Of a DNA stretch of 64,000 nucleotides, positions 4,708 to 57,962 are shown piece after piece. The DNA is from an uncultured bacterium (GTDB taxonomy: Bacteria; Patescibacteriota; Minisyncoccia; Phycocordibacterales; GWA1-40-21), in assembly GCA_963716205.1 (NCBI GenBank), contig OY970290.1, positions 452,911-516,910 on the forward strand, given 5' to 3'. Within the stretch, counting starts at the first letter, position 1. Each line of letters opens with the position of its first letter. The notes beneath the pieces were generated by a model. The model worked only from the letters and a program-made list of their open reading frames with translations, was not told where the DNA came from and made no database searches. A program made the translations under genes and the position numbers.

Positions 4708-5061
4708 ATAAACCTTTTTACCTATAAGCCGAATTCTGTTGACCGCATTGCTGCGATCAGATAGCCATCTATCTGGGACAACGATTGCTCATTGACTCAA
4801 GCGGCGCTCTCCAACCGAAGTCGGAGCACGGCCTTGCATTCAAGTAAGGATTTTGCCGTTACACTTTTTGAGTTGCCTCAAAAATTATCCTGCCTTGCGG
4901 CAGGATAGATTTTCCCTTTCGAAAAAATCCGTCACTGTTCGCACCTCTCGCGTTGCCGCGGACGGGCGTTACCCGCTACCCTTGTCCGACCGAAGTCGGA
5001 CTGAATGTTCGGACTTTCCTCTATCCGCTAAAAACGGACAGCAACTATCCAATAAAAAGGC
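4708..5061 (-). ncRNA. rnpB: RNase P RNA (bacterial type A)
   Basis: Minus strand carries GAGGAAAGTCCGAAC (P4 5' strand with bulged U), GGGTAACGCCCG (P10-12 region) and ACAGAATTCGGCTTATAG (P4 3' strand). The P1 candidate is CCTTTTTAT paired with GTAAAAAGG. Length about 350 nt, in a GC-rich non-coding stretch. Confidence 0.8.
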
Positions 5062-5108: not shown

Positions 5109-5414
5109 TCAAATAGTTCCGGTGATGATATTGATGATTCCTATTGCCGAAACCATAATAAAGATGCCTATAATGCCCCAGAGCATATGCTTCTGACCCT
5201 CCAGTCTTTTTTCCGGATCTGCTGCATTTTGAATGAATATCATCACGCCCCAAATAAAATATACTATTGCAAGCGCAAAGAAAAGATAAATGAGCGGAGT
5301 AATAATATCCGCCTTTACATTAGCAAAAAGCTTGGCAAACGTTATGCCCGTATTCGTGCCGCTTGGCGCAGGTATGCCTTGAGCATACGCTTTTTGGATT
5401 ATAAAATCCGGCAT
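5109..5414 (-). CDS. VirB2/TrbC-like pilin family small membrane protein (paralog 1 of 5)
   Basis: 101 aa. Two hydrophobic helices separated by a short charged loop (DPEKRLEGQKHMLWGIIGIFIMVS). Shares the ...xWGIxGIFxMxS core with the neighbouring paralogs. Confidence 0.55.
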   Translation of the reverse strand: MPDFIIQKAYAQGIPAPSGTNTGITFAKLFANVKADIITPLIYLFFALAIVYFIWGVMIFIQNAADPEKRLEGQKHMLWGIIGIFIMVSAIGIINIITGTI

Positions 5415-5420
5415 ACGGCT

Positions 5421-5774
5421 TTATATTGTTGGGATTTGGCTGCCGATATTTTCCTGAACACCGGAAGTACCGAAGGTTGACTGTAAGATCGCGACGAGTC
5501 CCCAAACTGAAACCATGATGAAAATGCCGACAATACCCCAGATCATGTCTGTCTTTGCCGCTTTCTTTGTTTCTTCATTCGTTGCAATCGTATATCGGAA
5601 AACCTGATAGATAAAGAAGACAACTGCGAGTGCAATAAGCAAAGGGACGACTCTATTTAATATTCCTCCGACAAAAGTGAACAAACCGCCGATACCCTGG
5701 CTTGGAGCATACGACTGAGCGAGAGCTATGACCGGAAAAACCGCGACGAGCGAACTTGCTAATATTCTTTTCAT
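5421..5774 (-). CDS. VirB2/TrbC-like pilin family protein (paralog 2)
   Basis: 117 aa. Signal peptide (MKRILASSLVAVFPVIALAQS), then TM1, a charged loop (NEETKKAAKTD) and TM2 (MIWGIVGIFIMVSVWGLVAIL). This topology is typical of T4SS pilins. Confidence 0.6.
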   Translation of the reverse strand: MKRILASSLVAVFPVIALAQSYAPSQGIGGLFTFVGGILNRVVPLLIALAVVFFIYQVFRYTIATNEETKKAAKTDMIWGIVGIFIMVSVWGLVAILQSTFGTSGVQENIGSQIPTI

Positions 5775-5888
5775 ATATAAATGATTACTGTTATTAAATA
5801 ATAAACTGACGCGACCTCGATTACAATGCCACTATTATAAATCTTGTTGAAGACATAATCAAGTGGATAAGTGAAATTCTGAGTATCG

Positions 5889-6470
5889 CTACTTTGGCTG
5901 ATTAATCGTCTGATTATTGCTCAATGAGTTGCCGAGAGAACTTTTCAATATGCTGACAATCCCCATGACGGAAAGCATGACGAATAAGCCGATAATTCCC
6001 CAGAGCATAAACTGCTTGCCCGAAGCCCTTTCCGTTTCATTTTCGGTCCGGACAAATTTGAATATACCATAGAGAAAGAAAATGACGGAAAGTGCAATGA
6101 GAATATCAATGACACTCGTATAAAAGCATCCAATGACAAGATTTTCGATAAGACTTTTGAAATCTTTCACTGCAGAAGGAGTGCAGGAAAAAGAAGATGC
6201 CGCTCCGCTTCCGTTCACCGGGTTTATGGAATTGACTGAAGAAGAATTGCCTGAAATCGAGTTTGCGCCGCAATAGCTCGCATCACCGACATGGTTTATG
6301 CAGTGCGGATCGTTGCCATTGGGATAAACCGCTAAGTTTGGATAGCAATAGCACGCGTAGGCGGTATGCGTTGCCGAAAAAAAAGAAGTAAAAACACCGA
6401 GTGCAACAAATGCTGAAATAATAAAAATTGAAATTTCGGATTTATGTTTCATGATGTTATGACTGCACAT
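5889..6470 (-). CDS. VirB2/TrbC-like pilin family protein with Cys-rich N-terminal extension (paralog 3)
   Basis: 193 aa. Signal peptide, then a Cys-rich insertion of about 80 aa (CYCYP...HCINH...YCG...SCTP), then a pilin core with ASGKQFMLWGIIGLFVMLSVMGIV. Confidence 0.55.
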   Translation of the reverse strand: MCSHNIMKHKSEISIFIISAFVALGVFTSFFSATHTAYACYCYPNLAVYPNGNDPHCINHVGDASYCGANSISGNSSSVNSINPVNGSGAASSFSCTPSAVKDFKSLIENLVIGCFYTSVIDILIALSVIFFLYGIFKFVRTENETERASGKQFMLWGIIGLFVMLSVMGIVSILKSSLGNSLSNNQTINQPK

Positions 6471-6813
6471 TCGTTATGGTGCCGACGACAATCGATGCAA
6501 TGACCTGCGCCCCGAGCAGGATGGCAACGCCGATGCAAGTATAGAAGAAAATATTTTTTGCTTCCTCAAGCCCTTTTTCATTCCCCCTCGCTTGGACAAA
6601 TTTGAATCCAGAATAAATAAAAGCGCATATCGCAATGACTCCGCCGACCTGGACCACATAGCCGAGAATTGTATGCACAAGATTTGGAATATTAGTAATT
6701 CCTGGTAATGGATTTTGAATCTGCGCAAAAGAAACGGACGGCATGAAAAATGCCAAAACTGAAGCTGAAAAAATAAAAACTCTTGCTTCTATCTGATTAT
6801 ATATATATTTCAT
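6457..6813 (-). CDS. VirB2/TrbC-like pilin family protein (paralog 4)
   Basis: 118 aa. Signal peptide ending FAQ, TM1 (ILGYVVQVGGVIAICAFIYSGFKFV), a charged loop (QARGNEKGLEEAKN) and TM2. Confidence 0.6.
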   Translation of the reverse strand: MKYIYNQIEARVFIFSASVLAFFMPSVSFAQIQNPLPGITNIPNLVHTILGYVVQVGGVIAICAFIYSGFKFVQARGNEKGLEEAKNIFFYTCIGVAILLGAQVIASIVVGTITNVQS

Positions 6814-6834
6814 CGCTGTTATTTTAATTAATAA

Positions 6835-7266
6835 TTAACTGCCAAAAAATTGCAAGGCGCCGCTTCCACTTTTGGCGCCGGTCAATGCTGCAATGACCGT
6901 ATGAATGACAAGCCATGCACATAATATGATAATCAGGCCGATAAGAGTTTTTTTGAACATATCAAGTGCTTCTGCTCTTTTGCTAGAATTGTTGGGATTA
7001 AAAATCATTTTGGCTCCGGCAACGGCAAAAGTAATCGCCGCCACGGAAACCGAAATTCCCAAAAACCAATTGATGATGTTGTTGACGAGCGTGGTAAGAT
7101 CGTTAAAATTGCAGTTATTCGTGCATGGGACCAAACCGCCAGTCGGACTACTGCCCTGCCCAGATTGCGCAAAAACAAATATCGGCACTGCCACAAAAAC
7201 AAAAACTGCAAATGGAAGGATTTTCTGAAAATTTCTCGTGCCTAAAATAGATTTTTTGTCAGTCAT
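6835..7266 (-). CDS. VirB2/TrbC-like pilin family protein (paralog 5)
   Basis: 143 aa. LVNNIINWFLGISVSVAAITFAVAGAKMIF closely parallels Agrobacterium VirB2 (MVNNICTFILGPF...), followed by a loop and a second TM. Confidence 0.65.
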   Translation of the reverse strand: MTDKKSILGTRNFQKILPFAVFVFVAVPIFVFAQSGQGSSPTGGLVPCTNNCNFNDLTTLVNNIINWFLGISVSVAAITFAVAGAKMIFNPNNSSKRAEALDMFKKTLIGLIIILCAWLVIHTVIAALTGAKSGSGALQFFGS

Positions 7267-7315: not shown

Positions 7316-8617
7316 TTACTGGAACAAATTGGAAAGCTCAGTGTCCGCTTTTTGAACGGCGCTGTCAACATCAAGATTGCCGGAGGTAACGTCACTGACC
7401 ATGCCGGAAAATATATTGCTGGTCGCCGCCATATCCGGATCAACCCATCCTTTTGCGATAAGCGCTGAATTGTAAAATACGGTTTTTTGCGGATCGGTCG
7501 TGCCTGCGGCAATCAAATCCGTTCGTGCCGGCACTCCGCCGCTGACATTAAGAAATTCGGAAACTGCAGGTGCGCTGGTCAGATTCGAAATCAGCGCAAA
7601 TGCATCCGCAGTGTTCGAAGAACTCTTCAAAAAAGCAAAACCATATAATTCTCCGAATGTCGTCTTGTCGGTCGTATTAAGCGTTTGCGGCACCATAGCA
7701 ACATCAAAATTCAAGTTTGGATTCTTGCTGGCGATATCGGACACTTCGGAAGCAAAGCCAAAATACATAGCAAGGTTTCCGGCAAGGAAATAATCTTTTG
7801 AATCCGGAAGCGAGCTGTTCCACGAATAAACGGATTTTTTCGGATTTGAATAATCCGTAAAAAATGTCAAAGCTGAAACAGCCGGAACAATCACTGCATC
7901 GGAAGATTTTTGGTATAGCTCTGATGCAAACGAGCCCGTGGAGCTGTCCGCGGAAACAATCGGGCTTCCCGCTTGCATGATAAGCATGGAAAGAATCGCC
8001 TTGGCATTGTTGACGTTGTCATATTCTCCGAAAGCCGTGGCGCTCTGTGTGATATTTCCGTTTTGATCAATAAGAGAAAACTTGTTCGCCAAAAGAGGAA
8101 ACTGCGACCAGTCTGTTGGTGGTGTGGCGACGCTGGCGCTTGCAAACATATCTTTGTTCCAATACATAACCATCGGATCGACAAAAAATGGCAAAGCAAA
8201 AATCCCCTGCGGCTGGATATACAGCTGCGCTTCCTGAATATACGTGTCCAAAAATGTTCTCTGCGGAATCGAAGTGATGAATGTAACTTTATCCAAATAT
8301 CGATCCATCAGCTCCTGCGGGATAAGAATGACATCCGGTCCCTTGCCGGTCGCAATAGCTTCGACGAGATCATTGTCTATCGTTGAAATACTGTGCTCAG
8401 TATACACAAGCTTCAACTGAATGTTGTCATCCTGCTCATATTTCGAAATAAAAGTATCAAACGTAGACTGATCCACCGTGCCCCAGATAGCAATCGTCGG
8501 CGCGCTGTTTGCGGTATTCGTCGATCGAAATGCAGAAAAAGCCACGAGCCCCGCAATGATGAAAAAAGCGAACACGCCTATCAGGATCATTTTAAATTTG
8601 TTGTTGCTTTTTTCCAT
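7316..8617 (-). CDS. ABC transporter extracellular solute-binding protein (family 1, sugar-type), membrane-anchored
   Basis: 433 aa. N-terminal TM anchor and SBP_bac_1-like periplasmic domain features. No cognate permease or ATPase lies adjacent. Confidence 0.65.
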   Translation of the reverse strand: MEKSNNKFKMILIGVFAFFIIAGLVAFSAFRSTNTANSAPTIAIWGTVDQSTFDTFISKYEQDDNIQLKLVYTEHSISTIDNDLVEAIATGKGPDVILIPQELMDRYLDKVTFITSIPQRTFLDTYIQEAQLYIQPQGIFALPFFVDPMVMYWNKDMFASASVATPPTDWSQFPLLANKFSLIDQNGNITQSATAFGEYDNVNNAKAILSMLIMQAGSPIVSADSSTGSFASELYQKSSDAVIVPAVSALTFFTDYSNPKKSVYSWNSSLPDSKDYFLAGNLAMYFGFASEVSDIASKNPNLNFDVAMVPQTLNTTDKTTFGELYGFAFLKSSSNTADAFALISNLTSAPAVSEFLNVSGGVPARTDLIAAGTTDPQKTVFYNSALIAKGWVDPDMAATSNIFSGMVSDVTSGNLDVDSAVQKADTELSNLFQ

Positions 8618-8629: not shown

Positions 8630-9163
8630 TTATACTTTTTTTCTGAAAATAATCCCATAATGATGCGCACCGGCTGAAACGATTTCTCTGTCTATCATAA
8701 AACCGTGTTTTTCAAAAAGTTTTTTCGCCGCATCCTCGGAAAAAACATGATCTGGATGCGGACCGAGATTGTTGAATGATGCAGACCAGTCGATAAGAAG
8801 CACGCGGCCGTTATTTTTCAGGATTCGCTTGATTTCAATGCAGGGATTGTCTTTGTTTTCAAATTGAAAAAAAACATTTGCTGCAATAATCACATCCATT
8901 GACTGATCATGGAGTTTCGTACCGCCGACATGTTCCAAATCCGCCCAGATAATTTCAATATTTTTCAAATGGCGAAGCTTTGCCTCATTTTTCACTTTTT
9001 CAAGTAAATCTTTTTGAACATCGATCGCATAGACTTCGCCGCCCTCGCCCACAGCCTGTGCCGCGGCAAAAGAATAATGTCCGGACCCTGCACCGAAATC
9101 CGCGACATACATGCCTTTTCCAAGACTGAATTGTTCTATATTTTTTACCGGATCTGAGAACAT
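8630..9163 (-). CDS. class I SAM-dependent methyltransferase
   Basis: Motif I VADFGAGSGHYS and an acidic motif II (YAIDV). Confidence 0.7.
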   Translation of the reverse strand: MFSDPVKNIEQFSLGKGMYVADFGAGSGHYSFAAAQAVGEGGEVYAIDVQKDLLEKVKNEAKLRHLKNIEIIWADLEHVGGTKLHDQSMDVIIAANVFFQFENKDNPCIEIKRILKNNGRVLLIDWSASFNNLGPHPDHVFSEDAAKKLFEKHGFMIDREIVSAGAHHYGIIFRKKV

Positions 9164-9204: not shown

Positions 9205-11673
9205 TTATATACACGTCACCGAAGCGAGCGAGTCACCTTCGCGGAGTTTCATGATGCGGACGCCTTGTGTCTGTCTGCCGAGCGATGGGATTTCTTTCAG
9301 CCCTGTGCGGATAACTTGGCTCTTCTTGGAAATCGTCGCAATTTCTTCCTGTTCATCCGTCACGACTTTGGAGGCAATAATCGGACCGGTTTTGTCCGTC
9401 ACTTTCATGGTGATGATGCCGGAGCCGCCTCTGCCTTGGACTTTGTATTCATCAATCGGAGTTTTCTTGCCATAGCCGTGCGAGCTGATGACGAGGAATT
9501 CCGGATTCTTCATGTCTTTTGAGATGACATCTGTGCCGACAATGAAATCACCTTTATCAAGCTTCATGCCTCGCACGCCTCCGGCAGACCTGCCCATGAC
9601 ACGCACGTCTTTGTCTTTAAAACGGATTGCTTGGCCACCTGATGTCGAAAGAATGACTTGATCGCCTTCATTCATGAAAAGTGCGCTTCGTAATTCATCT
9701 CCCGCATCAAGCGAGATGGCAAGAAGTCCGCTTCGCCTGACATCTTTAAAATTGTCCGCATCAACTCTTTTCGCCGTGCCTCCTTTCGTCACGAGAATTA
9801 AAGAAAGTTTCAAATTTTTCAGTGACTTAGGCATTGCAAGCACCGAGGTGATTTTTTCTTCAGCGGAAATTGCGAGATAATTTACAATTGCCTTGCCTTT
9901 GGTCGCGCGCTTGCCTTCGGGAAGCTCGTACATTTTTATTTGATATGCTTTACCTTTGTTGGTGAAAAATAAAATATCACTGTGCGCCGACGCAGAAAGG
10001 AAATGTGTGATGAAATCCTCGTCTTTGGTATCCAGATCGACAACACCGACTCCTCCGCGCTTCTGCTTTCGATATTCATCGGGATTGGTGCGCTTCACAT
10101 AGCCACCAGCGGTGAGGACGAGCATGTTCGGCTCATCAGCAATCATGTCTTCCTCGGAAAGATTTTTCACGCCACCTTTGACGACTTTTGTTCTGCGCTC
10201 GTCGCCGTATTTTTCTTTGATTTCAGCCAATTCATTTTTGATGATAGTCAAAATTCTTTTCGGTTTGGAAAGAATATCTTTCAAATCAGCGATAAGTGTT
10301 TGCACTTCAGCAAGTTCATCTTCAATTTTCTTTCTTTCAAGCCCGGCAAGCTTTTGTAAACGCATTTCCAAGATCGCATTCGCCTGAATCTCGGAAAATT
10401 TGAACGTCTTCATCAAGCCGGAGCGCGCATTGTCCACGTCTTTTGATTTCTTTATTAATTTTACTATTTCATCGATATGATCAAGCGCCTTTTTGAGACC
10501 GAGCAGTATGTGCTCTCGTGCCTCGGCCTTTTTCAAATCAAATTCTGTGCGTCTTTTGACGACAATTTTGCGATGCTCGATAAATTCATCGAGACATGAC
10601 TTCAGCGATAATGTTCGCGGCACACCGGCGACAAGAGCAACAATATTGATATGAAATTTATCCTCAAGCTGGGTGTGCTTGTATAAATAATTCAAAACGC
10701 TTTGCGGATTGGCGTTATTTTTCAGATCAATGACAATGCGGATGTCTTTTGTCGATTCATCACGCAGACCTTTGATACCTTCAATTTTCTTTTCGTGCAC
10801 GAGATTTGCAATCGCCATAATGAGCGTCGCTTTGTTCACGCGATACGGAATCGAAGTAATGATGATAGAATAATTTTCTTTCTTGTCCTCGACGATTTCC
10901 GCGGTGCCTCGCGTGACGATTCCTCCGCGACCAGTCGCATACGCGTGGTTAATGTCTACTTGGTTATATATAGTCCCTCCTGTCGGAAAATCCGGACCTT
11001 TAACGAATTGCAGCAAATCTTCCGTCGTCGCATCTTTGTTTTCAACTAAATGAAGTGTTGCATCAACAACTTCGGTAAGATTATGCGGAGGAATATCGGT
11101 CGCCATACCAACGGCAATACCAAGAGTTCCATTGAGTAAAAGATTCGGTACGCCGGATGGCAAAACGATTGGTTCTTTTTTTGTGTTGTCATAATTCGGA
11201 CGCCATTCCACCGTATCTTTGTCGATATCTTTGAGCAAGTCGCCGGCAATCTTTGACATTTTTGCCTCTGTATAACGCATCGCTGCGGCGGAATCTCCAT
11301 CAATATTCCCAAAATTTCCCTGACCGATGACGAGCGGATATCTTGTGGCAAAATCCTGCGACATTTTCACCATCGCATCGTAAATGGAAGCATCGCCGTG
11401 CGGATGATAATTGCCCATCACTTCGCCGACCACGCCGGCGGATTTGCGCGTCTTTGCTCCGGCAGTCAGATTCATCTGACCCATCGCATAGAGAATTCTG
11501 CGGTGCACCGGCTTGAGACCATCACGGACATCAGGCAACGCGCGGTCAGTAATGACCGACATTGCGTAGTCAATAAACGACTCTTTCATTTCGATCGTAA
11601 TAGACCTGTTGGTAAGCAACTTTGCCGCTACCGGTTCAATGTTTTCTGTTTTTTTATGTTTATCTTCAGCCAT
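9205..11673 (-). CDS. gyrA: DNA gyrase subunit A
   Basis: 822 aa. [28 protein letters not shown], the active-site Tyr region, and C-terminal beta-pinwheel repeats. Confidence 0.95.
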
Positions 11674-16184: not shown

Positions 16185-16805
16185 ATGTCCAAAGCCAAAC
16201 AATTCATCAAGGAAAGTCTGATTATCATCATTCTTTCACTCGCGATCGTCCTGCCGATACGCATATTCATCGCCCAGCCGTTTGTTGTTTCCGGCGATTC
16301 AATGCTCAATACTTTTCAAAATGGCAACTACCTGATCGTTGATGAAATCTCATATCGGTTTCATAATCCGCAACGGGGCGATGTGATCGTCTTCAAAGTC
16401 CCGCCGGCTGGGCTTGCACTCGAACACGAGGCGACCAGCTCAACGGTCTATTATATAAAAAGAATCATCGGACTTCCCGGCGAGACGGTCCAAATCAACG
16501 GTGACACAGTAGAAATTTTTAATGCAGCGAATCCGAACGGATTTATTTTGAAAGAGCCGTATGAATATTTCAATCCTTCTGTCGCATCATCGACAACACA
16601 ATTTTTTGAAAATATCAATGAAAAAGTAACGCTTGGTCCGGGACAATATTTCGTCATGGGAGATGACCGGCACAACAGCGCCGACTCCCGCCTCTGGGGC
16701 ATACTACCCTCGGCAAATATCAAAGGCAGAGTATTCCTCGAATTACTGCCTCTCAATCAGCTCTCGATTTTCCCGGGAAAATACAATACATACGCAAACC
16801 AATAA
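16185..16805 (+). CDS. lepB: signal peptidase I (S26)
   Basis: N-terminal TM and catalytic Ser box (VSGDSMLNTF). Lys box region (YYIKRIIGLPGETV) and C-terminal GDDRHNSADSRLWG. Confidence 0.9.
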   Translation: MSKAKQFIKESLIIIILSLAIVLPIRIFIAQPFVVSGDSMLNTFQNGNYLIVDEISYRFHNPQRGDVIVFKVPPAGLALEHEATSSTVYYIKRIIGLPGETVQINGDTVEIFNAANPNGFILKEPYEYFNPSVASSTTQFFENINEKVTLGPGQYFVMGDDRHNSADSRLWGILPSANIKGRVFLELLPLNQLSIFPGKYNTYANQ

Positions 16806-26736: not shown

Positions 26737-28188
26737 ATGAAGTTAGAGAAAACAACAATCAGAAATTATAGAAGTATAGATGAGCTATCATTTGATATTA
26801 ACCAACTCAATGATCAGACCTTTACGTATGGCTTAATCGGAGTAAACGAAGCTGGAAAATCTACAATATTAAAGGGATTAGCATTAAAAGATGGTTTAAA
26901 AAACGAAAAGGGATCAGCTCTACCGTTACTTAAAGATTTCAAAGATAAGTCAAAACCAATTGAAATCGAGTATTTATACTTACTAAACAAAGATGAAATA
27001 ATTTTTTGTAGAGAGCATATAGTTACACAGGCACCAGAAGTAACAGAGGTTGGTACTATTGATTTTAGTTCCATTAAGCTTATAACTTATTTCAATATTG
27101 ATGCGCCAAGTACCGTTAAATATAGGATTGATATTAGTTCTATACCTGAAACAAACGAACAAAAGTCTTTAATTGAAGATAAATTAAAAAAGATTATTTT
27201 CGAGAAATCACATAAATCAATTTTTTGGACAGCAGAAGATCGTTATTTAATCTCACAACCAATAACATTGTCACAATTTGCAGATAATCCGGATGTAATA
27301 TCAATACCTTTGAAAAACTGTTTTGCTCTTGCTGGAATAGTTGGGATAACTGCAATTAAAGAAAAAATAGCTTCAATCTCTGAATCAACTGAGCGAGAAC
27401 AATTACAGACTGATCTAGGTGAAAAAGTAAGTGCTCACATAAATACAGCTTGGCCTAAACACCCAATTACAATAACTTTTGACATATCTGATGGTCTGAT
27501 CAATTTTCATGTCCATGACTCAAATTCAAAAGGTAAAGCAAAAACAGCTGACCAACGAAGTGATGGTTTTAGACAATTTGTATCTTTTCTTTTAACTATT
27601 GCAGCACAAAGTAAAAACGATGAGCTTTCTAATACAATTTTATTGCTTGATGAACCAGAAACACACCTGCATCCACAAGCTCAAGAAGATTTGTTAAAAC
27701 AACTTATCAAAATAACTGAAAATAAAAAAAATAATATTGTATTTTTTGCTACTCACTCTAATTACATGATTGATAAAAATGATTTGAGTAGAAATTATAA
27801 AATATTTAAAAAATCTAATAAAAAATCGGAAAAAGAAAAGACTGAAAAAGAATTGTTTGATAAAAAAGTTTCAACTTATGCCAGTGTAACTTATGAGGTA
27901 TTTGATATTGCGACTACCGATTACCATAATGAACTTTACTCAAAGGTACACGAATTATATCAAGATGCTGATTCTACTGACAAAGAACGCTCAGGTATTC
28001 TAAATTTCGATACTAATTTCTTGGAAAAAGAAAAGAAGCTTAAAAAGGACAAACCTTGGAAAAATACTCCTAACAAGGCAACTCTTCCTACTTATATTAG
28101 AAATTGTATTCATCATTCAGATAATGGGGATAAATATAAAGATGAAAATCTAAGGGAATCTATTGAGTTATTACTTTCTTATTTATAA
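26737..28188 (+). CDS. SMC/OLD-type ABC ATPase with C-terminal HEPN-like domain (PrrC/RloC-like architecture)
   Basis: ATPase motifs: IRNYRSI start, Walker A GVNEAGKST, signature-like SDGFRQFVSF, Walker B/D-loop LLLDEPETHLHP and H-loop FFATHSNYM. The C-terminal region of about 120 aa carries YIRNCIHHSD (R-x4-H, HEPN-like). The gene is AT-rich relative to its neighbours. Confidence 0.6.
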   Translation: MKLEKTTIRNYRSIDELSFDINQLNDQTFTYGLIGVNEAGKSTILKGLALKDGLKNEKGSALPLLKDFKDKSKPIEIEYLYLLNKDEIIFCREHIVTQAPEVTEVGTIDFSSIKLITYFNIDAPSTVKYRIDISSIPETNEQKSLIEDKLKKIIFEKSHKSIFWTAEDRYLISQPITLSQFADNPDVISIPLKNCFALAGIVGITAIKEKIASISESTEREQLQTDLGEKVSAHINTAWPKHPITITFDISDGLINFHVHDSNSKGKAKTADQRSDGFRQFVSFLLTIAAQSKNDELSNTILLLDEPETHLHPQAQEDLLKQLIKITENKKNNIVFFATHSNYMIDKNDLSRNYKIFKKSNKKSEKEKTEKELFDKKVSTYASVTYEVFDIATTDYHNELYSKVHELYQDADSTDKERSGILNFDTNFLEKEKKLKKDKPWKNTPNKATLPTYIRNCIHHSDNGDKYKDENLRESIELLLSYL

Positions 28189-28248: not shown

Positions 28249-29160
28249 TTACTTACCTCTTTTTTCATCTTCCTGTTGTTGTAAATAAGCATCTACGACT
28301 GCTTCTATCTCCTCTTCAGAAGGAACATCTTCATCTGTTTTATCAGTAAATTTTATACCCTCATCTTTAAACGTATTTTTTACAACTTCTAAGGCAAATT
28401 CTGCTTGCTCTTTAGTAATTGGATCGGAGGAGTGAACTGCTTTATTTCTGATACCAATTAAGTCTTTAATTAGAGAGATGTATTTTTTATCTGAAAAAAT
28501 ATTATTTTTATCCGCAAAATCTAACAGTTGTCTCATCCCCATGTACTTAGTTGTTAAATCTTTTTCTTCCAATAGCTTTTCTTTTAGATACTCTTCAAGT
28601 GTTTTTTGAGCTTCTATTACTGTTTCAGCATAAAATTTGTTATCAAATAATTTAAGTGCTCTCTCTAAATATGAATCTTTTAATTTTTCTATAGTTTCGG
28701 TTGCCTCTCTTACCGTTCTTCTTGTTAGCCTGATTGCGTTAAAGAAACTAGATATTGCTAATATTGAGCCGGCAATTCCATCAAAAATAATAACCGCATG
28801 TTCGTGTTGTTTCGCAAAGCCATAAAATGGTTCTGATCCAATAATCCAGAAAAAGATCACTAAAATTGGAAACAGCATCGCAAACGAATAAAAAAAATTT
28901 GCTAAAGGAATGATCCATCTAAATAAGAAGAAATTTTGATATTTACCAAAATTGAATCGTAAATAATCTAAAGCATAGAGATAAACAGATATGGTTAATA
29001 AAATAATAAAAAAAATCATTATTCCAAATAATGGATATATTCTATTACCAATTATCAAGCCAATTTTTGACAAATCATCTTTGAAGGTGCTGAAGGCTAA
29101 AAAAGCAGCAAGAAGTCCTACAACAAAAAATGCTTTATCTTGTATCTGTTTATCATTCAT
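28249..29160 (-). CDS. multi-TM membrane protein with C-terminal HEPN domain
   Basis: Four or five N-terminal hydrophobic helices, then a soluble C-terminal domain with the canonical HEPN motif LIGIRNKAVHSSDP (R-x4-H). AT-rich. Confidence 0.6.
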   Translation of the reverse strand: MNDKQIQDKAFFVVGLLAAFLAFSTFKDDLSKIGLIIGNRIYPLFGIMIFFIILLTISVYLYALDYLRFNFGKYQNFFLFRWIIPLANFFYSFAMLFPILVIFFWIIGSEPFYGFAKQHEHAVIIFDGIAGSILAISSFFNAIRLTRRTVREATETIEKLKDSYLERALKLFDNKFYAETVIEAQKTLEEYLKEKLLEEKDLTTKYMGMRQLLDFADKNNIFSDKKYISLIKDLIGIRNKAVHSSDPITKEQAEFALEVVKNTFKDEGIKFTDKTDEDVPSEEEIEAVVDAYLQQQEDEKRGK

Positions 29161-40160: not shown

Positions 40161-43100
40161 TTATTGCCCTTCTGATGAGGTTGCCGAGGAATCAGTCGTT
40201 GTTGCTTGAGATGAATCATCCGGAGTCGTAGTTGCTGTTGTTATTTGGATATCAGAGGTGGAACTTGCGGTGCTTGTTGCCGTTCCATCAGAAGTCGAAG
40301 TGGCTGTCGAAACAATATCAGTTGTCGTTGCTTGAGATGAATCATCCGGAGTCGTAGTTGCTGTTTCGGAATCAGGCGTCGAAGTTGCAGTGCTTGTTGC
40401 GATTTCCGTTCCTGAATTATCCGGCGCACTCGAGCTTGCTGCCTCTGCCGGAGACGTCGCTGCTGGAAGTGTGTAGTCCGAAGGATAACCAAACGTTTTT
40501 GCATTATTGACTGCAAGAGCAATCCAACTGAAGGTTGTGTCATCAATAGCGGGTTTGTTAAGCATGATCGTAAATCCTGCCGTTGATTTTTTCATAATGA
40601 CATATTGAATATTGTTGTTGAAGATATCTCCGACGGTAGCGGTATCAGCGGCGGGATTGCTCGAAGTATCAAACGTAATGTTTGCACTTACGATTGGATC
40701 TGTAAGATACGGATTGGTGAATGTCACATCAACTGATTGCTGGCCCTTGGCAATAACCGCGAAGCCAGCGGTGTCATTATTGAAGTATGGCCTACCAAAG
40801 AATATTGTGTCTGATTCAAGAGTAATGGCGTCATTCAAAGAACTTATATTATCCACTGTCAAACCTTGCGTTGTTATGCTTGGTGCAATAATTTCAATTC
40901 CGGCGGCAAGGCGATCAACCAAAAGTTCAGATGTCGTATCCGTCGCTTCAGGACCGGTTCCTTGATTTGCCAGGAATTTCGCCAGCACCTGTCTTCCTAT
41001 TGTTTCAGTATTTCCAACATCTTCGATGCCGGCAAATTCACTCAAACTTTCTCCGCTGTAATATCCTTGTTCAACAAAAACCATCACTTGGCTCTGCCCC
41101 GAATTTGGACTCCAGTTGCCGAGTGCTTTGCCAATAACCTCACCCGCTTTTGTGGCTTTCATTGCTTTTCCGGGATCATCAGAAGTCGTCAAATAATCTC
41201 CTGGTTGTATCGGATCCGAACTTGATGAAACATTGACCATAATACGACCATTAAGTGCGATTGGCATTATTTTATCTTCCCCACTCATTGCATTATATCC
41301 AGCGGAAGTAAATTGACCATAGTTGTCGGAAACAACACCGATCACATTTGATGCATATGTCGTGGTAGCTTGAACAAGTTCGGTAATTTCCTGCGGTGAA
41401 TCTGTTGAAACATTTCCTTCCGCATCAGTTCCATATTGTTCAACAGTTGTTGTGCCAAGCACCATAACATCACCATAATCCGTCGACTGTTCAACTGGAT
41501 ACATTTCAGCATAATCAGAAGTTGGCGCACCGCTACAAGTGACAAGTTGATACGCAGTTCCTGATACCGGAGCTTGTGATCCCGTAAGAGTAGCTACGCA
41601 AACACCTTTGATTCTTGCGGCTGTTGACGTACCAAGTGAAACCGCGACTCCTACTGATGTAGTACCAACGCCACCAGCAATAATTGAAACTGTCGTTGTA
41701 CCGGAACTCGAATTTTTTACGCCAATATTAATCGCTGTAACACCGGTGCCACCATTTGCAGTCGTTCCAATATTGATCGTTTGGTTATTATTACCACTTG
41801 CACCAGTACCTATGTTAATAATTTGACCTCCGGTAGATGAGCCAAGTGTAATAGCACCTGTCCCTGTAGTGGAACCGATGACGATTGTGCCATTTGTATT
41901 TGGAGTCATCGTAATTCCACCTGTGCCAGTACCACCATAAATTGTAGTATTTCCTGTTAATGACGTACTGCCAATTTGTATAGCGCCGCTTGTAACATTG
42001 CTGAACAAAAGGTTTGTGGGAGACGTACCGCCATATATGGTTACTACTCCGGTTGCCGCTACTCCGCCAAGAGTCAATGTTCCTGTACCGGTTACAGCAA
42101 AAGTTGAAGCGCCATTACCCGCATTAATATTAACTTTGGTTGCACCCGTAATGTTACCGATGGTAACAGTTCCAGCTATTGCTCCTGTTCCAATATTGAT
42201 GATATTTCCGGTTGCACCTTGAGTACCAATATTTACAGTATTGATTCCTCCGATTCCAACTCCGAGGTTCAAAGTTTCCGCACCTGTCGATGAACCGACA
42301 GTGATAGCACCTGTCTGCCCAGTTCCGCCTATTGTATATGTACCTGATGTTAAAGCCGCGCCATCAGTTATCGAACCTGTTGTTATACCAGTACCTATCG
42401 TTATGGTTGAACCAGCGGCACCTTGTAATAAATAATTTCCTGTCCCCACTGTTTCTGTTATTCCTGTTGCACCGACATTATTTCCAATAGCAATGACATT
42501 ACCGCCAGTACTACCATTGGCAATATTTACTGCCGCATTATTAGAACCGGTATTTATATTTGCTGCAAAATTTGAAGAAACATTCAAATTGACTGCTGCA
42601 CCCGTAGAAGTCAAACCTGCAACAAAAGTTCCCAAATTATTCCACGTTTTAGCTCCATTCACCGATTGAGTTGTTGTAAGGTCAACAAAGTTTTGGGAAC
42701 TTGAACCTGTTCCGCCGTTGGTAATTGGCAAAATGCCCGCGGTAGAAGGCAAGTTGGTTAAGAGTGACCAACTTGGTGTTCCCGCAGCAGTGTTCATTAA
42801 AACCATACCTGTTGTGACACCGGCAGCCAATCTCGCGGGAGCAGGTGTTGAATTTTCATAAATCATATCTCCCACAGTAGTCATAGGATTTGTAAGTTTC
42901 CCATTAAACGTCGTCCAATCAGCGCTTGCCAGACATCCGCTTACAGATCCCGATGCCTGCGGACAGTTAATCGTGAGTGATGATGAAGTTGTTGAAATAT
43001 TAAATGATGTACCGGATGTTCCGACTGCTGTTGTGAATGGTCCCGTATATCCTGCTGCCACTGATGCTGTCAGTGTTCCTGAATTTGTCACCGGTGAATT

Positions 43101-46100
43101 CGTTACAGTATATCCTGTCGGTAGAGAAAGACCGACGGAGGTGACATACGCCAGTGATGTCGAGGCCGAGGATAACAAAAATTGAGAAGTTGATGTGGAA
43201 ATTACATTTCCATTTGGGTCAACTGCCAAAAATGCATTTGAAAGTTTTGAGATGTTCAAATTTTGAGTAGTGGAAGTCCCGATGACTGAAAGTGCAGTTA
43301 CCGGAGTTGTTGTGCCGATGCCGACATTGCCATTCGGTAATATATTGAATCCGACTGTAGAGGTAGAATTAAAAGAAACAAATGGAGACGTCAGTGAGCC
43401 ATTTAACGCAGTATAAGAAATACTTGATGTAGCCAATAAGAAATCAGCTGGATTTGAAGAAAATACATTTCGCATTGCGGAAACGCTTTGAGTTCGTAAA
43501 ACGGTAACGCTATCAAGCTGAGAGATAGGAGTTTGAATCGGAACGGGTGCAGTCCAGGAAGCAAAATTATTGTATGAATCGCTGTAGTGAATAAATGACG
43601 TATTGCCGTATTCATCAAGATAAATTCTCCAATCATTGGCGCTGACCTGTACAAGTGCCGGGGCTTCATAGTTATTCGCTCCCCATCCTGCCCAGTTGCC
43701 GCTTTCCGCAGTGACAAACGGTCCTGTCGGTGAAGAAGAAGTGGCATATTCAATATATTTCGGAGCGGTTTCCTCTTTGTACCAGAGATAATATGTGCTA
43801 CCAATCTTGACCATAAATGGGTCAATCTTGTTTGCTCCAATAACATAAACTGGATTCGACCATGTGGTCATGGCGGCATTTGTCGGGTGCATTTCGTAAA
43901 CACTGAAGGTATTATCGGAACCGTCCGGAGCAATTGAAACATAGGCATGAACAGTTCCGTCCGTATCGACAAAAAGTGACGGTGCCCATGTCCAATAGAC
44001 TGTGGTTGTCGCTGCCGTCGTGGAAGGATTTGTCACATAGCTCCAATTCCTCAGATCAGATGAAGAAGCAAGACCCCACCATTGATTTGAACCAAAGCCA
44101 GAATATGATGGAAAGTTATTATAACTCATCCAATAGACATTATTGTAATAAATAATTGACGGATCTCGGAAACTTCCGGATGGTGGGATATACGGCGGAT
44201 TGGGTTCAAAATCAAAGAAATTAATACCATCAGCACTTGATTCAATCTCCATAGTTTGTGCTGAGAAATTATGCCCGACAAGGATATATACTCCTTGACC
44301 CGCAACAGCAGGATTACCGACCGATGCATCACCCAGCGTGTTCGTGTTTCCACCAAAATATGCAATAGTTGTAGTAGCTGAAGTCAATCCCGCAACAGAA
44401 AATTCAGAGTTTGGAGTACTTGTCCCGACACCAACATTGCCATTGGTAAGAACTGTAAGGAGAGGCGATGTTGTTGAATAAATATTGAGTAGTGGTTGCG
44501 TTTGAGCATATGTTGAAGTCGCTTCAATAGCCAGTTCTGCAGACGGAGTTGTCGACCCGATTCCAATATAACCATTTGAAAAAACTTTAAAATATGAACT
44601 TCCATTTATTCCGTAAATTTCAAGAGGATTTCCTAAAGATGAACTTGCTTGAATATCAACGGCATCATCAGGCGTAGTTGTTCCGATTCCAACACTTCCA
44701 TTTGAAAGAATTATCATTCTTGTATCTGAAGCCAATGTTCCTCCGGTAAAGAATTTCAGAGCGGCTTGTGAATTTGTACTCGTAGCTGTGCCAATATCTA
44801 ATGAATTATCAGAAGCATACACATAAGCATCGTCTGATGTTGCTATGGTAAATGTCTGATCAGCGTTATATCCGTTATTAATACCCAAATCTACATAATT
44901 TGAATTATCATTTCCATTGTTTGCTGTTGCAATATAATCCGCAGAAGATGTCGGAGAGTTTGAAGAATTTTCCAATACCATTTCAACAGATGCGGACGAA
45001 CTGCCTATCACAGCAAACGGAACTACATTACCGTCTCCTAAAACATTCCAGTTTGTTGTCGTGCCAATGGCAATTGATGAACTTGCGGGAAATTCATATA
45101 GAACTGAATTAGTCAAAGTTCCGCTTGATGTTGCATACGAAATATATCCGGTCGTAAAAGGTGATGTTGTGCCAAGTCCCCCACTGCTTGTTCCGCCTGA
45201 TATTCCGAGCGATGATGTCGAAACATATGCAACACCTCCGATTGCTGTTGATGATGCTACGAGAACATATCCATTCGTTCCCGTTGCAATGCTACCAAGT
45301 CCCGATCCTGAAGACCAATATGCCAAATCTCCTGATGTTCCGGAAAGAGCATTTTGTTTCCCATTAAACGTCGTCCAATCAGCGCTTGCCAGACATCCGC
45401 TTACAGATCCCGATGCCTGCGGACAGTTAATCGTGAGTGATGATGAAGTTGTTGAAATATTAAATGATGTACCGGATGTTCCGACTGCTGTTGTGAATGG
45501 TCCCGTATATCCTGCTGCCACTGATGCTGTCAGTGTTCCTGAATTTTTCACCGGTGAATTCGTTACAGTATATCCTGTCGGTAGAGAAAGACCGACGGAG
45601 GTGACATACGCCAGTGATGTCGAGGCCGAGGATAACAAAAATTGAGAAGTTGATGTGGAAATTACATTTCCATTTGGGTCAACTGCCAAAAATGCATTTG
45701 AAAGATTGGAAATGTTTAATCCTTTCGTGGTTGAAGTACCGATGACGGAGAGTGCTGTTGCTGGAGTGGTGGTGCCAATACCAACTGCATATGATGCTAA
45801 TAATTCTCCTCCATAACCAGCGTTTCCGAGTGAGTATCCTATACCAATACCATTATTAAATGTGAAATTGCCCCAGCCATCTGAAGATATTGTTCCTTGT
45901 TGTGTATTGTCAGTTCTTGTTGAACTTATCAGTGTTGTTGAAGCATTCGCTGAAAAATTAAGAAGTCCGTTAGAATAAACTTGATTACCTGGAGCTCCAA
46001 TACCAACATTTCCATTGAAGAATGCGACTGTTCCAGTTGGTGCAGTAACAGAACCAACGGAAAGTGTGGAAACATTTGAAAGCGATTTATTATTGAGATT

Positions 46101-49100
46101 CACTCCGCCAGTCGCACCGGAATACGGAACATAGAGTGATGAGCTGGCAAACGGAATGTATGCAAGCGATGTCGAGGCCGAGAGCGGAAGGTAGGTGGAG
46201 GCGGCTGTTGCCGTCGTCAGGTAATTGGTGATGGTTGAGGTTGAGACGTAGTTGGCGGCGGCCGATGTCGTTGAGAGATATCCAAGCAGCGTGTTGGCAA
46301 ATGATGAAGTTGAGACGTAGTTGGTCAGTGATGAGGTGGTGGCCGTGATGTAATTGGAAGGATTGGAGTTGAGGTAATACAAACTTGAGGATGCAAACGG
46401 AATGTATGCAAGCGATGTCGAGGCCGAGAGCGGAAGGTAGGTGGAGGCGGCTGTTGCCGTCGTCAGGTAATTGGTGATGGTTGAGGTTGAGACGTAGTTG
46501 GCGGCGGCCGATGTCGTTGAGAGATATCCAAGCAGCGTGTTGGCAAATGATGAAGTTGAGACGTAGTTGGTCAGTGATGAGGTGGTGGCCGTGATGTAAT
46601 TGGAAGGATTGGAGTTGAGGTAATACAAACTTGAGGATGCAAACGGAATGTATGCAAGCGATGTCGAGGCCGAGAGCGGAAGGTAGGTGGAGGCGGCTGT
46701 TGCCGTCGTCAGGTAATTGGTGATGGTTGAGGTTGAGACGTAGTTGGCGGCGGCCGATGTCGTTGAGAGATATCCAAGCAGCGTGTTGGCAAATGATGAA
46801 GTTGAGACGTAGTTGGTCAGTGATGAGGTGGTGGCCGTGATGTAATTGGAAGGATTGGAGTTGAGGTAATACAAACTTGAGGATGCAAACGGAATGTATG
46901 CAAGCGATGTCGAGGCCGAGAGCGGAAGGTAGGTGGAGGCGGCTGTTGCCGTCGTCAGGTAATTGGTGATGGTTGAGGTTGAGACGTAGTTGGCGGCGGC
47001 CGATGTCGTTGAGAGATATCCAAGCAGCGTGTTGGCAAATGATGAAGTTGAGACGTAGTTGGTCAGTGATGAGGTGGTGGCCGTGATGTAATTGGAAGGA
47101 TTGGAGTTGAGGTAATACAAACTTGAGGATGCAAACGGAATGTATGCAAGCGATGTCGAGGCCGAGAGCGGAAGGTAGGTGGAGGCGGCTGTTGCCGTCG
47201 TCAGGTAATTGGTGATGGTTGAGGTTGAGACGTAGTTGGCGGCGGCCGATGTCGTTGAGAGATATCCAAGCAGCGTGTTGGCAAATGATGAAGTTGAGAC
47301 GTAGTTGGTCAGTGATGAGGTGGTGGCCGTGATGTAATTGGAAGGATTGGAGTTGAGGTAATACAAACTTGAGGATGCAAACGGAATGTATGCAAGCGAT
47401 GTCGAGGCCGAGAGCGGAAGGTAGGTGGAGGCGGCTGTTGCCGTCGTCAGGTAATTGGTGATGGTTGAGGTTGAGACGTAGTTGGCGGCGGCCGATGTCG
47501 TTGAGAGATATCCAAGCAGCGTGTTGGCAAATGATGAAGTTGAGACGTAGTTGGTCAGTGATGAGGTGGTGGCCGTGATGTAATTGGAAGGATTGGAGTT
47601 GAGGTAATACAAACTTGAGGATGCAAACGGAATGTATGCAAGCGATGTCGAGGCCGAGAGCGGAAGGTAGGTGGAGGCGGCTGTTGCCGTCGTCAGGTAA
47701 TTGGTGATGGTTGAGGTTGAGACGTAGTTGGCGGCGGCCGATGTCGTTGAGAGATATCCAAGCAGCGTGTTGGCAAATGATGAAGTTGAGACGTAGTTGG
47801 TCAGTGATGAGGTGGTGGCCGTGATGTAATTGGAAGGATTGGAGTTGAGGTAATACAAACTTGAGGATGCAAACGGAATGTATGCAAGCGATGTCGAGGC
47901 CGAGAGCGGAAGGTAGGTGGAGGCGGCTGTTGCCGTCGTCAGGTAATTGGTGATGGTTGAGGTTGAGACGTAGTTGGCGGCGGCCGATGTCGTTGAGAGA
48001 TATCCAAGCAGCGTGTTGGCAAATGATGAAGTTGAGACGTAGTTGGTCAGTGATGAGGTGGTGGCCGTGATGTAATTGGAAGGATTGGAGTTGAGGTAAT
48101 ACAAACTTGAGGATGCAAACGGAATGTATGCAAGCGATGTCGAGGCCGAGAGCGGAAGGTAGGTGGAGGCGGCTGTTGCCGTCGTCAGGTAATTGGTGAT
48201 GGTTGAGGTTGAGACGTAGTTGGCGGCGGCCGATGTCGTTGAGAGATATCCAAGCAGCGTGTTGGCAAATGATGAAGTTGAGACGTAGTTGGTCAGTGAT
48301 GAGGTGGTGGCCGTGATGTAATTGGAAGGATTGGAGTTGAGGTAATACAAACTTGAGGATGCAAACGGAATGTATGCAAGCGATGTCGAGGCCGAGAGCG
48401 GAAGGTAGGTGGAGGCGGCTGTTGCCGTCGTCAGGTAATTGGTGATGGTTGAGGTTGAGACGTAGTTGGCGGCGGCCGATGTCGTTGAGAGATATCCAAG
48501 CAGCGTGTTGGCAAATGATGAAGTTGAGACGTAGTTGGTCAGTGATGAGGTGGTGGCCGTGATGTAATTGGAAGGATTGGAGTTGAGGTAATACAAACTT
48601 GAGGATGCAAACGGAATGTATGCAAGCGATGTCGAGGCCGAGAGCGGAAGGTAGGTGGAGGCGGCTGTTGCCGTCGTCAGGTAATTGGTGATGGTTGAGG
48701 TTGAGACGTAGTTGGCGGCGGCCGATGTCGTTGAGAGATATCCAAGCAGCGTGTTGGCAAATGATGAAGTTGAGACGTAGTTGGTCAGTGATGAGGTGGT
48801 GGCCGTGATGTAATTGGAAGGATTGGAGTTGAGGTAATACAAACTTGAGGATGCAAACGGAATGTATGCAAGCGATGTCGAGGCCGAGAGCGGAAGGTAG
48901 GTGGAGGCGGCTGTTGCCGTCGTCAGGTAATTGGTGATGGTTGAGGTTGAGACGTAGTTGGCGGCGGCCGATGTCGTTGAGAGATATCCAAGCAGCGTGT
49001 TGGCAAATGATGAAGTTGAGACGTAGTTGGTCAGTGATGAGGTGGTGGCCGTGATGTAATTGGAAGGATTGGAGTTGAGGTAATACAAACTTGAGGATGC

Positions 49101-50660: not shown

Positions 50661-51914
50661 TCATTTTTTAAATCCTTTAAACTCTTTTTCGACATCATGT
50701 TCTATCACCTGCAAATACGTTTCGAGCTTGTTAAGAAGTTCTGTTTCTTGATCAGTAAGTTCACGCTCATTCTTTGTTTTTTGTAAAAAATCAATACGAT
50801 CATTTATTTCTTTTCGTATATAATCAAAATCCTTGTATAAAGTGGATTCAGCCTCAAAAACCTTTTTTGATATCTTTTTCTCCAGACGGGAAAAGCGGTA
50901 CAGGAGGTACCAGATGAGGATAAGAATGAGGAGAACAATGAGGATAAATGTACTGTTGTAAGTGAAATAAGTAAGTAGGAGTGTTTCGATCCTTGCAAAA
51001 CCTTGCTCTGTCACTGTGAGGAAAAGAGGCGAAGTCAAAGGACTTTTCATTCCAAAGCTTTCTACTTCTCCATAAAGTTTGTATGTTCCGTATGTGAGCT
51101 TCTCCGGCCAGACCATCGAGAAGGTGCCTGATGGATTCACCGTGACTTTCTCAGTTGACGTCGCTCCGTTTTCATTGACCAGGAAAAGATCTGCGGTAAA
51201 TGTTGTTGTAGAAGTTGTACTTGAAGCGATAAGTGAGGAGGTCGCCAGTGCTCCATCCACCTCAAAGGTGTTACCTTCCGTTACCTGTGCCGGAAAGAGG
51301 GTGATATGCAAAGATGGGAATAGCATTTCCTCGGCTATTGTTGAAGTACTCGTAATAATGATTGAAACTCCACTCGGGATGACCGGAACGTATGTTTGTT
51401 TGACCTCAAGCAGATTGAATGATGCCGGCGTACTGCCTGTAAATACATTCGTTCCGTATCCATCATTGGCGCGGACAACTGCCGAAGAGAAAATGACTGA
51501 TGCGATGCCGGCTTTTTTAACTTGAAAAACAATGCTCAGAATTTTGCCCGCAGTGCCGGTAAAGCCGGGGGTTGGCACTCCGCCGTCAAACGATACGGTG
51601 CCGGCACTATTGGAAAAGGAAGGATCCTCAACCCAGAGAGAAAATATAGAATCCGATTTGCTGACTGACATGACTTCCAAGAGATTACTGGGAAAACTAA
51701 CAGTGACTTCGGCATCGTTAATTGCCGTTGATTGAGAATCAACGAGAACATTAAGGGTAAATATGTTTCCTGTGGTGAAATATCCTGAAGAAGGATTGAA
51801 AGACAGGGTTGCTGCATGAATCTGATCTACAATAAAAAAATTAAGCAGAATGAGAACGCCGAAAAATATATACTTGCAGATAGCCTTTTTTTTATTTACA
51901 TATTCCATGTTCAA
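50661..51914 (-). CDS. membrane-anchored cohesin-like domain protein (signal peptide, cohesin-like module, Ig-like region, TM, cytoplasmic coiled-coil tail)
   Basis: N-terminal module ATLSFNPSSG...NVLVDSQ...AEVTVSFPSNLLEVMSV...FSLWVEDPSFSNSAGTVSFDGGVPTPGFTGTAGKI... is shared by five proteins in the locus and resembles cohesin type I topology. C-terminal TM plus a Lys/Glu-rich tail. Confidence 0.55.
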   Translation of the reverse strand: MNMEYVNKKKAICKYIFFGVLILLNFFIVDQIHAATLSFNPSSGYFTTGNIFTLNVLVDSQSTAINDAEVTVSFPSNLLEVMSVSKSDSIFSLWVEDPSFSNSAGTVSFDGGVPTPGFTGTAGKILSIVFQVKKAGIASVIFSSAVVRANDGYGTNVFTGSTPASFNLLEVKQTYVPVIPSGVSIIITSTSTIAEEMLFPSLHITLFPAQVTEGNTFEVDGALATSSLIASSTTSTTTFTADLFLVNENGATSTEKVTVNPSGTFSMVWPEKLTYGTYKLYGEVESFGMKSPLTSPLFLTVTEQGFARIETLLLTYFTYNSTFILIVLLILILIWYLLYRFSRLEKKISKKVFEAESTLYKDFDYIRKEINDRIDFLQKTKNERELTDQETELLNKLETYLQVIEHDVEKEFKGFKK

Positions 51915-52525: not shown

Positions 52526-52537
52526 ATTGAAGTTATA

Positions 52538-53620: not shown

Positions 53621-53707
53621 GAAAAATATGTAAAAATTAACTCGAATAGCAACTCTCGTTCAGCAATAACTCTTGCTTATTATATATCATAAAAACAATA
53701 ATGAATA

Positions 53708-53781
53708 TGGTGCGGGTGGCGAGAATCGAACTCGCGCCCGATGCTTGGGAAGCACCAGTTCTGCCACTAAACTACGCCCGC
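53708..53781 (-). tRNA. tRNA-Gly (anticodon CCC), CCA encoded
   Basis: The reverse complement has anticodon stem-loop GGTGC-TTCCCAA-GCATC, T-arm GCGAG-TTCGATT-CTCGC and 3' ACCA. One possible acceptor-stem mismatch in my reading. Confidence 0.7.
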
Positions 53782-53783
53782 AT

Positions 53784-56110: not shown

Positions 56111-56156
56111 ACCGCCTCATAGTAGCAGAAAAACGGGAAAAATAAATGGCGGAAAA

Positions 56157-57961: not shown

Positions 57962-57962
57962 A

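Follow-up and report, generated by a model that had tools for sequence, protein, structure and literature searches.

A tandem array of five predicted T4SS_pilin-family genes downstream of a methyltransferase and a solute-binding protein gene in a Patescibacteria chromosome

Five tandem genes of the T4SS_pilin family

The 64-kb stretch of contig OY970290.1 analyzed here (hereafter the window) carries a tandem array of five short minus-strand genes, for which a reading made from the sequence alone had proposed VirB2/TrbC-like pilins. The five consecutive open reading frames (ORFs) were recovered where that sequence-only reading had placed them, and encoded proteins of 101 to 193 aa. They were lettered in their order of transcription on the minus strand as slot A (6835-7266, 143 aa), slot B (6457-6813, 118 aa), slot C (5889-6470, 193 aa), slot D (5421-5774, 117 aa) and slot E (5109-5414, 101 aa). 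The genes were contiguous, with gaps of 21 bp between A and B, 114 bp between C and D, and 6 bp between D and E. The same five genes were called independently on an identical Logan contig (L001), where slot C was started at M7 (187 aa), pointing to 6452 as its probable true start; the 14-bp overlap of slots B and C would then become a 4-bp gap. A search of the 64 kb with an in-house pilin hidden Markov model retrieved no pilin ORF beyond the five. The paralogs were divergent (18 to 43% pairwise identity), as had been proposed. Slots C, D and E grouped more closely, the slot D hairpin sharing 43% identity with slot C and 39% with slot E.

The Pfam gathering cut-off of PF18895 (T4SS_pilin, for type IV secretion system; 26.6 bits) was passed by all five slots, with 49.1 bits for slot A, 27.6 bits for slot B, 27.0 bits for slot C (at residues 119-175), 37.8 bits for slot D and 33.5 bits for slot E. 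PF18895 labels precomputed on independent contigs concurred. The cut-off of PF04956 (TrbC/VirB2, 27.9 bits) was passed by slot B only (34.4 bits; ortholog alignment A3), the most TrbC/VirB2-like member, and for slots A, C, D and E this family was absent from the Pfam families listed at E<=1. All five proteins also matched the NCBIfam model NF045849 (Mbov_0395, pilin-like conjugal transfer protein; E 5e-9 to 8e-4), with scores of 35.7, 33.1, 29.4, 22.7 and 19.1 bits that all fell under the 40-bit cut-off and mark them as related to this family rather than as members of it. The sole plasmid match obtained by tblastn was a Mbov_0395-type protein encoded 4 kb from a VirB4-like CD1110 ATPase. Since five neighboring ORFs matching one family rule out chance, the five proteins are, on their profile scores, members of the T4SS_pilin family and true relatives of conjugation-pilus subunits, and the family named by the sequence-only reading stands.

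Unrelated proteins with two transmembrane (TM) segments could mimic pilins by their hydrophobicity. They might be holin-like, an alternative that had been named along with the pilin proposal, or be left behind by a prophage or an integrative and conjugative element (ICE). Short hydrophobic proteins do draw spurious profile matches, fold searches cannot tell helical hairpins apart, and three of the five PF18895 scores lay less than 7 bits over the cut-off, two of them by 1 bit or less (27.0 and 27.6 versus 26.6). However, all five passed one curated cut-off, two independent libraries returned conjugation pilin-like families, and no holin family appeared even at E<=1, only scattered sub-threshold matches to unrelated membrane families, with E>=0.003, being obtained from Pfam and NCBIfam. 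The locus did not resemble a mobile-element remnant either: no phage, integrase or relaxase genes were found near the array, its G+C content (0.42) equaled that of its chromosomal neighborhood, and its housekeeping flanks (GyrA, MurJ, RNase P RNA and ParB) were kept in conserved synteny. This explanation is already largely refuted, and we regard it as very improbable.

It is the Pfam profiles that carry the family assignment, and not the likeness to Agrobacterium VirB2 that had been pointed out in the string LVNNIINWFLG...AGAKMIF. This string was indeed present, in slot A, but the likeness was weaker than had been stated. It was confined to a motif of 15 residues with 53% identity, aligned in register where helix 1 starts (hhalign E 0.042), and direct hhalign comparisons to Agrobacterium VirB2 aligned 15 to 30 residues with E of 0.04 and 0.013. 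The motif is genuine, though its statistical support is weak. Ortholog profiles of slots A and B searched against all PDB chains returned chance matches only, with no VirB2, TraA or TrbC.

The topology that had been described (signal peptide, two hydrophobic helices and a short charged loop) was found in slots A to D and, for the hairpin only, in slot E. In the hydropathy profiles of slots A to D, a hydrophobic signal segment at the N terminus preceded two hydrophobic helices (about 19 residues each), with a loop of 12 to 18 residues, rich in K, R, E and N, between them. A-x-A-type cleavage motifs could be read in the same four proteins (VFA before Q, SFA before Q, AYA before C and ALA before Q, in slots A to D), which carry cleavable-looking Sec-type signal peptides. 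Slot E had two hydrophobic segments only, and its leader, MPDFIIQKAYAQ, showed no hydrophobic signal core. This 11-residue leader (MxDFxxQKAYA, more fully M(L/M)DF(L/I)(I/V)QKAYA), with its A-x-A-like end, was alike in nine orthologs, none of which had a hydrophobic core (alignment A4); because it is conserved among orthologs, the short leader is considered real and not a truncation. This one subunit may therefore be exported or processed by an unusual route.

Slot A had 23 homologs at 40 to 99% identity in protein searches. Its cysteines C48 and C52 (C-x3-C), just past the predicted cleavage site, were invariant in a 17-sequence alignment, and its conserved C-terminal tail of the GALRFLGN type might, speculatively, be a processing signal. 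An AlphaFold2 (AF2) model of slot A, built from the ortholog alignment, presented a signal helix followed by a hairpin (H54-89 and H94-129) with a predicted local distance difference test (pLDDT) of 80-91. The Cys-rich insertion of about 80 aa that had been noticed in one paralog was confirmed in slot C, as an extracellular insert before helix 1 that brings four extra cysteines. It was present in the source genome and its closest relative, and was missing or replaced by G/S/N-rich sequence in the other orthologs, the slot ranging from 107 to 290 aa in length. The Cys pair directly before helix 1 was conserved, one cysteine being invariant and the other kept in at least 90%.

Slot conservation and the upstream partner genes

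The closest relatives of the source genome (82 to 88% GyrA identity) were named Candidatus Paceibacterota or Patescibacteria group. Related loci, 41 of which were obtained by a scan of species-representative genomes, came, where named, from Candidatus Paceibacterota, Parcubacteria, Patescibacteria group, Moraniibacteriota and Doudnabacteria, and homologs of the solute-binding protein described below carried the same organism names. Judged by these relationships, the host of the array is a member of the Patescibacteria (candidate phyla radiation, CPR) with Paceibacteria/Parcubacteria-type relatives. The order A-B-C-D-E was common to all 14 close relatives, with one or more extra D-type copies in two of them and one contig ending after slot C. 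Identity among orthologs within a slot averaged 45 to 57%, compared with about 31% between paralogs within a genome. Fixed order and higher identity within slots than between paralogs indicate that the five genes are old, differentiated subunits under purifying selection. No long, near-identical or inverted DNA repeats that could drive recombination were found within the array, where the longest repeat (68 nt, 66 to 71% identity) reflected the C/D/E subgroup.

These results bear on the idea, put forward in the sequence-only reading, that the multiplicity of pilin genes serves surface variation. In a cassette of this kind, the filament surface would change through exchange of pilin copies or through their alternate expression. 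The divergence of the paralogs, the highly variable length and insert of slot C and the duplication of slot D in two relatives agree with such a cassette, and host-range adaptation has been raised in published discussion (PMC12102498). Yet each slot formed a conserved orthologous group in a fixed order, neither near-identical repeats nor invertible segments nor recombinase genes were detected, and all five genes were intact, co-directional and separated by short gaps. The idea was not borne out, and a surface-variation cassette is considered quite unlikely. From sequence comparison, the five genes appear to form a stable complement of differentiated subunits rather than a recently amplified or recombining cassette, and slot C alone seems to behave as a variable exposed element.

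Upstream of slot A, and on the same strand, were encoded a predicted membrane-anchored solute-binding protein (SBP) of the MalE/oligosaccharide type (7316-8617, 433 aa; PF01547, SBP_bac_1, and PF13416) and a small class I S-adenosylmethionine-dependent methyltransferase (MTase; 8630-9163, 177 aa; Methyltransf_31/11/25). The MTase gene was itself preceded by the gene of GyrA (9205-11673), identified from its own sequence and from precomputed Pfam labels of its orthologs. GyrA through slot E were co-directional, with gaps of 41 bp between GyrA and MTase, 12 bp between MTase and SBP, and 49 bp between SBP and slot A. The AF2 model of the SBP (pLDDT 84) showed an N-terminal TM helix and a two-lobe MalE-like fold, and Foldseek matched it to maltose, maltodextrin, sucrose and glucooligosaccharide binding proteins (E ~1e-24). 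The SBP is predicted to be an N-terminally membrane-anchored, two-lobe, sugar-type binding protein.

Of the 41 related loci, 33 encoded an SBP homolog. When the window was added to these (34 loci), the first pilin gene directly followed the SBP gene in 32 (median gap 5 bp), and the MTase gene lay directly upstream of the SBP gene in 28 (median gap 14.5 bp). The MTase-SBP-pilin linkage was kept down to 24 to 27% SBP identity despite a complete turnover of the outer flanks: the family of the window had GyrA...MurJ, Moranbacteria-type loci had PGI-RNase J, and other loci had sigma-70-nucleotidyltransferase. The sample is biased toward the SBP-linked arrangement, as slot-A orthologs had served to retrieve most of the loci; three further loci, reached by way of the SBP, each displayed the succession MTase-SBP-pilins. 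The array is the 3' part of a compact and widely conserved string, MTase, then SBP, then pilins, and this coupling to an upstream MTase-SBP pair lies beyond what the sequence-only reading had described. Promoter and terminator scans gave no more sites than shuffled sequence, and the operon structure is therefore read from the short intergenic gaps only. The coupling was not mentioned in PMC12102498, PMC10633639, PMC12857230 or their text-searchable supplements, and neither the whole-genome shotgun prefixes of the relatives nor SBP or methyltransferase terms were found in the supplements of PMC12102498.

Loci without SBP held single pilins, five of them directly after ClpB. Single pilins beside ClpB, with neither SBP nor array, formed a separate orthologous group (L023:8499-8903, L031:9920-10390, L032:9980-10912, L035:9944-10435 and L039:9839-10498). 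In distant Patescibacteria, the pilin hairpin was fused to large extracellular parts (L034:10388-14170, L024:9173-10669, L025:9239-12360 and L036:12160-12765), the fused pilins including one of 1260 aa that combines a pilin domain at its N terminus with CARDB, and others of 498, 354, 388 and 299 aa. Distant arrays often ended in a tandem double-pilin of about 200 to 220 aa with five hydrophobic segments.

The constancy of the gene string also fits an explanation that dispenses with secretion machinery. The hairpins and the anchored SBP would form a T4SS-independent surface or membrane module, one component of which would be modified by the MTase. The module would serve to bind glycans of the host, or to capture or take up a carbohydrate-like ligand derived from it; the name pilin would then denote shared ancestry with VirB2 only. 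The adjacencies counted above, their survival of flank turnover, their recurrence in the loci sampled from the SBP side and the intact MalE-like fold predicted for the SBP all speak for such a module. Neither an ABC permease/ATPase nor a T4SS gene was found within 10 kb in any SBP-linked locus. On the other hand, Saccharibacteria members of the family lie inside a T4SS cluster, pilins stand beside virB4 in 1,135 assemblies, adjacency in tiny and dense genomes can last without a functional link, and the sample of loci is biased toward this very arrangement. We know of no SBP-dependent system whose membrane component is made of VirB2-like hairpins. A module of this kind is considered possible, though rather unlikely.

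Flanking genes and other features of the window

Downstream of slot E, the bacterial class A RNase P RNA (4709-5060, minus strand, 122 bits) began after 48 bp, and the flank continued with MurJ, tRNA-Trp, MiaA, tRNA-Leu and ParB. An RNA-sized gap without a called gene likewise separated the last pilin from MurJ in relatives. A type I signal peptidase LepB (Peptidase_S26; PF10502, 150 bits) was encoded outside the operon on the plus strand (16185-16805).

Several proteins encoded near pilin genes in relatives were tried as secretion or transport components and rejected. The sole candidate for a T4SS ATPase within 10 kb of any pilin, a 928-aa protein of a distant relative (L029:14256-17042, minus strand), turned out to be like the type IV coupling protein VirD4, and not VirB4. 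It carried PF26449 and TraG-D_C, with a Walker A motif at residue 526, and was encoded between map/adk/secY and ndk. Its 1762 homologs, those listed being 55 to 60% identical and mostly from Paceibacteria-type sources, point to a conservation unusually strong for a coupling-protein homolog without a nearby relaxase; among the 120 of the 1762 matches listed, none lay on the 681,747-bp source contig or on a 606,401-bp contig. Double-Walker proteins of about 900 aa beside single pilins were ClpB, proteins of 600 to 650 aa upstream of the module were RNase J, and those of 290 aa were nucleotidyl transferases and neither ABC permeases nor VirB6.

Elsewhere in the window, a minus-strand ORF (40161-50498) encoded a protein of 3445 aa with an N-terminal TM segment. 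It contained a 246-bp unit repeated 15.2 times with 100% identity at 46147-49886, corresponding to 15 perfect 82-aa units, and GC skew reached +0.48 over 46-50 kb. Either this is a giant surface protein that expanded very recently, or the repeats are an artefact of assembly. The adjacent region (50661-63987, minus strand) encoded a run of secreted or anchored proteins that looks like a cell-surface or adhesin island. Two of its proteins carried cohesin domains (51911-52525 and 57963-59420), the latter belonging with 56157-57086 to a local paralog family, and the run also included a Big_6/fn3 protein (59436-60986) and a 1027-aa Peptidase_S74 (endosialidase chaperone) protein (60904-63987). Between 26000 and 32000, flanked by tRNA-Ser and tRNA-Glu, G+C content dropped to 0.33-0.36 versus about 0.42. 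This probably is a small defence islet, encoding an AAA_15/AAA_21 (OLD/AbiEii-like) ATPase (26737-28188) and a HEPN/DUF4145 protein with four TM segments (28249-29160).

Assembly, function and comparison with known systems

The array is a Patescibacteria VirB2-like pilin array, whose products would probably be assembled by T4SS machinery encoded elsewhere into a pilus or stalk for host interaction. Beyond the family, topology, slot conservation and gene string described above, the assembly, T4SS dependence and function proposed here are suggested by the Saccharibacteria precedent and by the prevalence of VirB4, close to 80%. Pre-pilins would be inserted by Sec/YidC, and the A-x-A sites of slots A to D would be cut by LepB (16185-16805), the likely enzyme. 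From the resulting membrane pool of five pilin species, subunits would be extracted and polymerized by monoderm-type (MPF-FATA-derived) VirB4/VirB3/VirB6 encoded elsewhere on the chromosome, giving a heteromeric pilus or a stalk-like surface structure for host contact and/or exchange in a host-dependent life, as has been proposed for the essential six-pilin array of Southlakia epibionticum. Slots A, B, D and E may provide the conserved structural subunits and slot C a lineage-variable exposed insert, while the SBP, which would be co-transcribed, probably serves as a functional partner on the cell surface.

Several points weigh against this reading. Pfam scans of the window, which covered ORFs of at least 150 aa that were not shadow frames of longer ORFs as well as unassigned smaller ORFs, returned no VirB4, VirB3/PrgI, VirB6/TrbL, VirB8, VirB11 or VirD4 family, in agreement with the absence of VirB4, VirB6 and VirB11 from the 64 kb reported earlier. 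Within 10 kb of the 36 SBP-linked arrays examined in relatives, no T4SS ATPase, VirB3/PrgI or VirB6 was found, and neither in the window nor in SBP-linked loci did the pilins lie within or beside a T4SS cluster, which is the context criterion of PF04956. Slot E comes without a signal peptide. Solved pilins gave no informative match in searches by sequence or by fold, a helical hairpin being too simple for structural comparison. To our knowledge, pili have not been observed in any Patescibacterium, and T4SSs of the Gram-positive type normally come without pilins. A constant coupling to an SBP is, as far as we know, without precedent in T4SS biology.

A more far-reaching proposal would make Paceibacteria-type pilins no accessory of the T4SS locus but the output of a separate and ancient operon, MTase-SBP-(3-10 pilins), in which the SBP works physically with the filament or stalk, possibly independently of VirB4. 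We put it forward only tentatively, as something doubtful. If true, the SBP would sense a ligand or host glycans for the filament, or form the receptor end of a conduit for uptake, and the locus would encode a surface organelle of a new, SBP-coupled kind, used to scavenge from the host cell.

The favored explanation, a pilin array served by a T4SS encoded elsewhere, has a published background that the sequence-only reading did not draw upon, pilin arrays in Patescibacteria being an already published hallmark (PMC12102498, PMC10633639). In a survey of 3,035 Patescibacteria genomes with PF18895, PF04956 and CONJScan profiles, VirB4 was found in 2,417 of the 3,035 assemblies (Quinonero-Coronel et al. 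2025, PMC12102498). VirB2-like pilins were encoded in 1,948 VirB4-positive assemblies, beside virB4 in only 1,135, and 441 arrays of 2 to 11 pilin genes were found in 383 assemblies, with a mean identity of 25% and a maximum of 54% (PMC12102498). The array of the window qualifies under the definition used there, at least two VirB2-like genes in tandem or one non-pilin gene apart. Six PF18895 pilins (SEML1_0014-0019), located inside the T4SS cluster of Southlakia epibionticum, were essential for epibiotic growth in transposon sequencing (Tn-seq; Wang et al. 2023, PMC10633639). A 2025 review described Patescibacteria T4SSs as unique among monoderm systems in their pilus potential, and speculated on a conduit for exchange or uptake (PMC12857230).

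The means by which ultrasmall and biosynthetically crippled Patescibacteria supply themselves from host cells have yet to be explained, and an unusual, pilin-bearing Gram-positive-type T4SS was essential in the sole species tested. For one Paceibacteria lineage, the comparisons made here show the pilin set to be a fixed five-subunit complement and not a variable cassette. Its genetic coupling to an orphan sugar-type SBP and an MTase instead of VirB4 offers a concrete lead toward a role in uptake or host recognition, so far only guessed in reviews.

Among known systems, the published Patescibacteria arrays resemble the array of the window in family (PF18895, sometimes PF04956), in their tandem 5 to 6 genes of about 100 to 190 aa, in their chromosomal location in a CPR genome and in low paralog identity (18 to 43% here, versus a published mean of 25% and maximum of 54%). 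However, the S. epibionticum array lies within a T4SS cluster, beside VirB4-like, PrgI and VirB6 genes, whereas the array of the window and related Paceibacteria-type loci are more than 10 kb from any T4SS gene and are joined to an MTase-SBP pair.

Agrobacterium VirB2 and RP4 TrbC (PF04956, from diderms) share with the array the signal peptide, the two-helix hairpin and the short charged loop; slot B scores over the PF04956 cut-off, and slot A presents the xVNNIxxFxLG motif of Agrobacterium VirB2 at the start of helix 1. In contrast with these diderm pilins, four of the five slots remain under the PF04956 cut-off, the host is a monoderm, no virB operon, VirB5 or VirB7-10 accompanies the genes, and the proteins bear extra Cys pairs and extracellular inserts. 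The Mbov_0395 family (NF045849), from ICEs and plasmids of Mollicutes and Bacillota, provides a two-helix pilin-like protein in a monoderm setting, but as single-copy genes within mobile-element T4SS clusters, unlike the chromosomal five-gene array described here, which scores below its cut-off.

The virB2 paralogs of Bartonella and Anaplasma likewise occur as several tandem divergent copies. They are thought to give antigenic or host-range variation, whereas stable orthologous slots were found here. The array of the window belongs to an already published phenomenon, to which its constant place behind an SBP gene, and not beside the secretion genes, is the single new detail.

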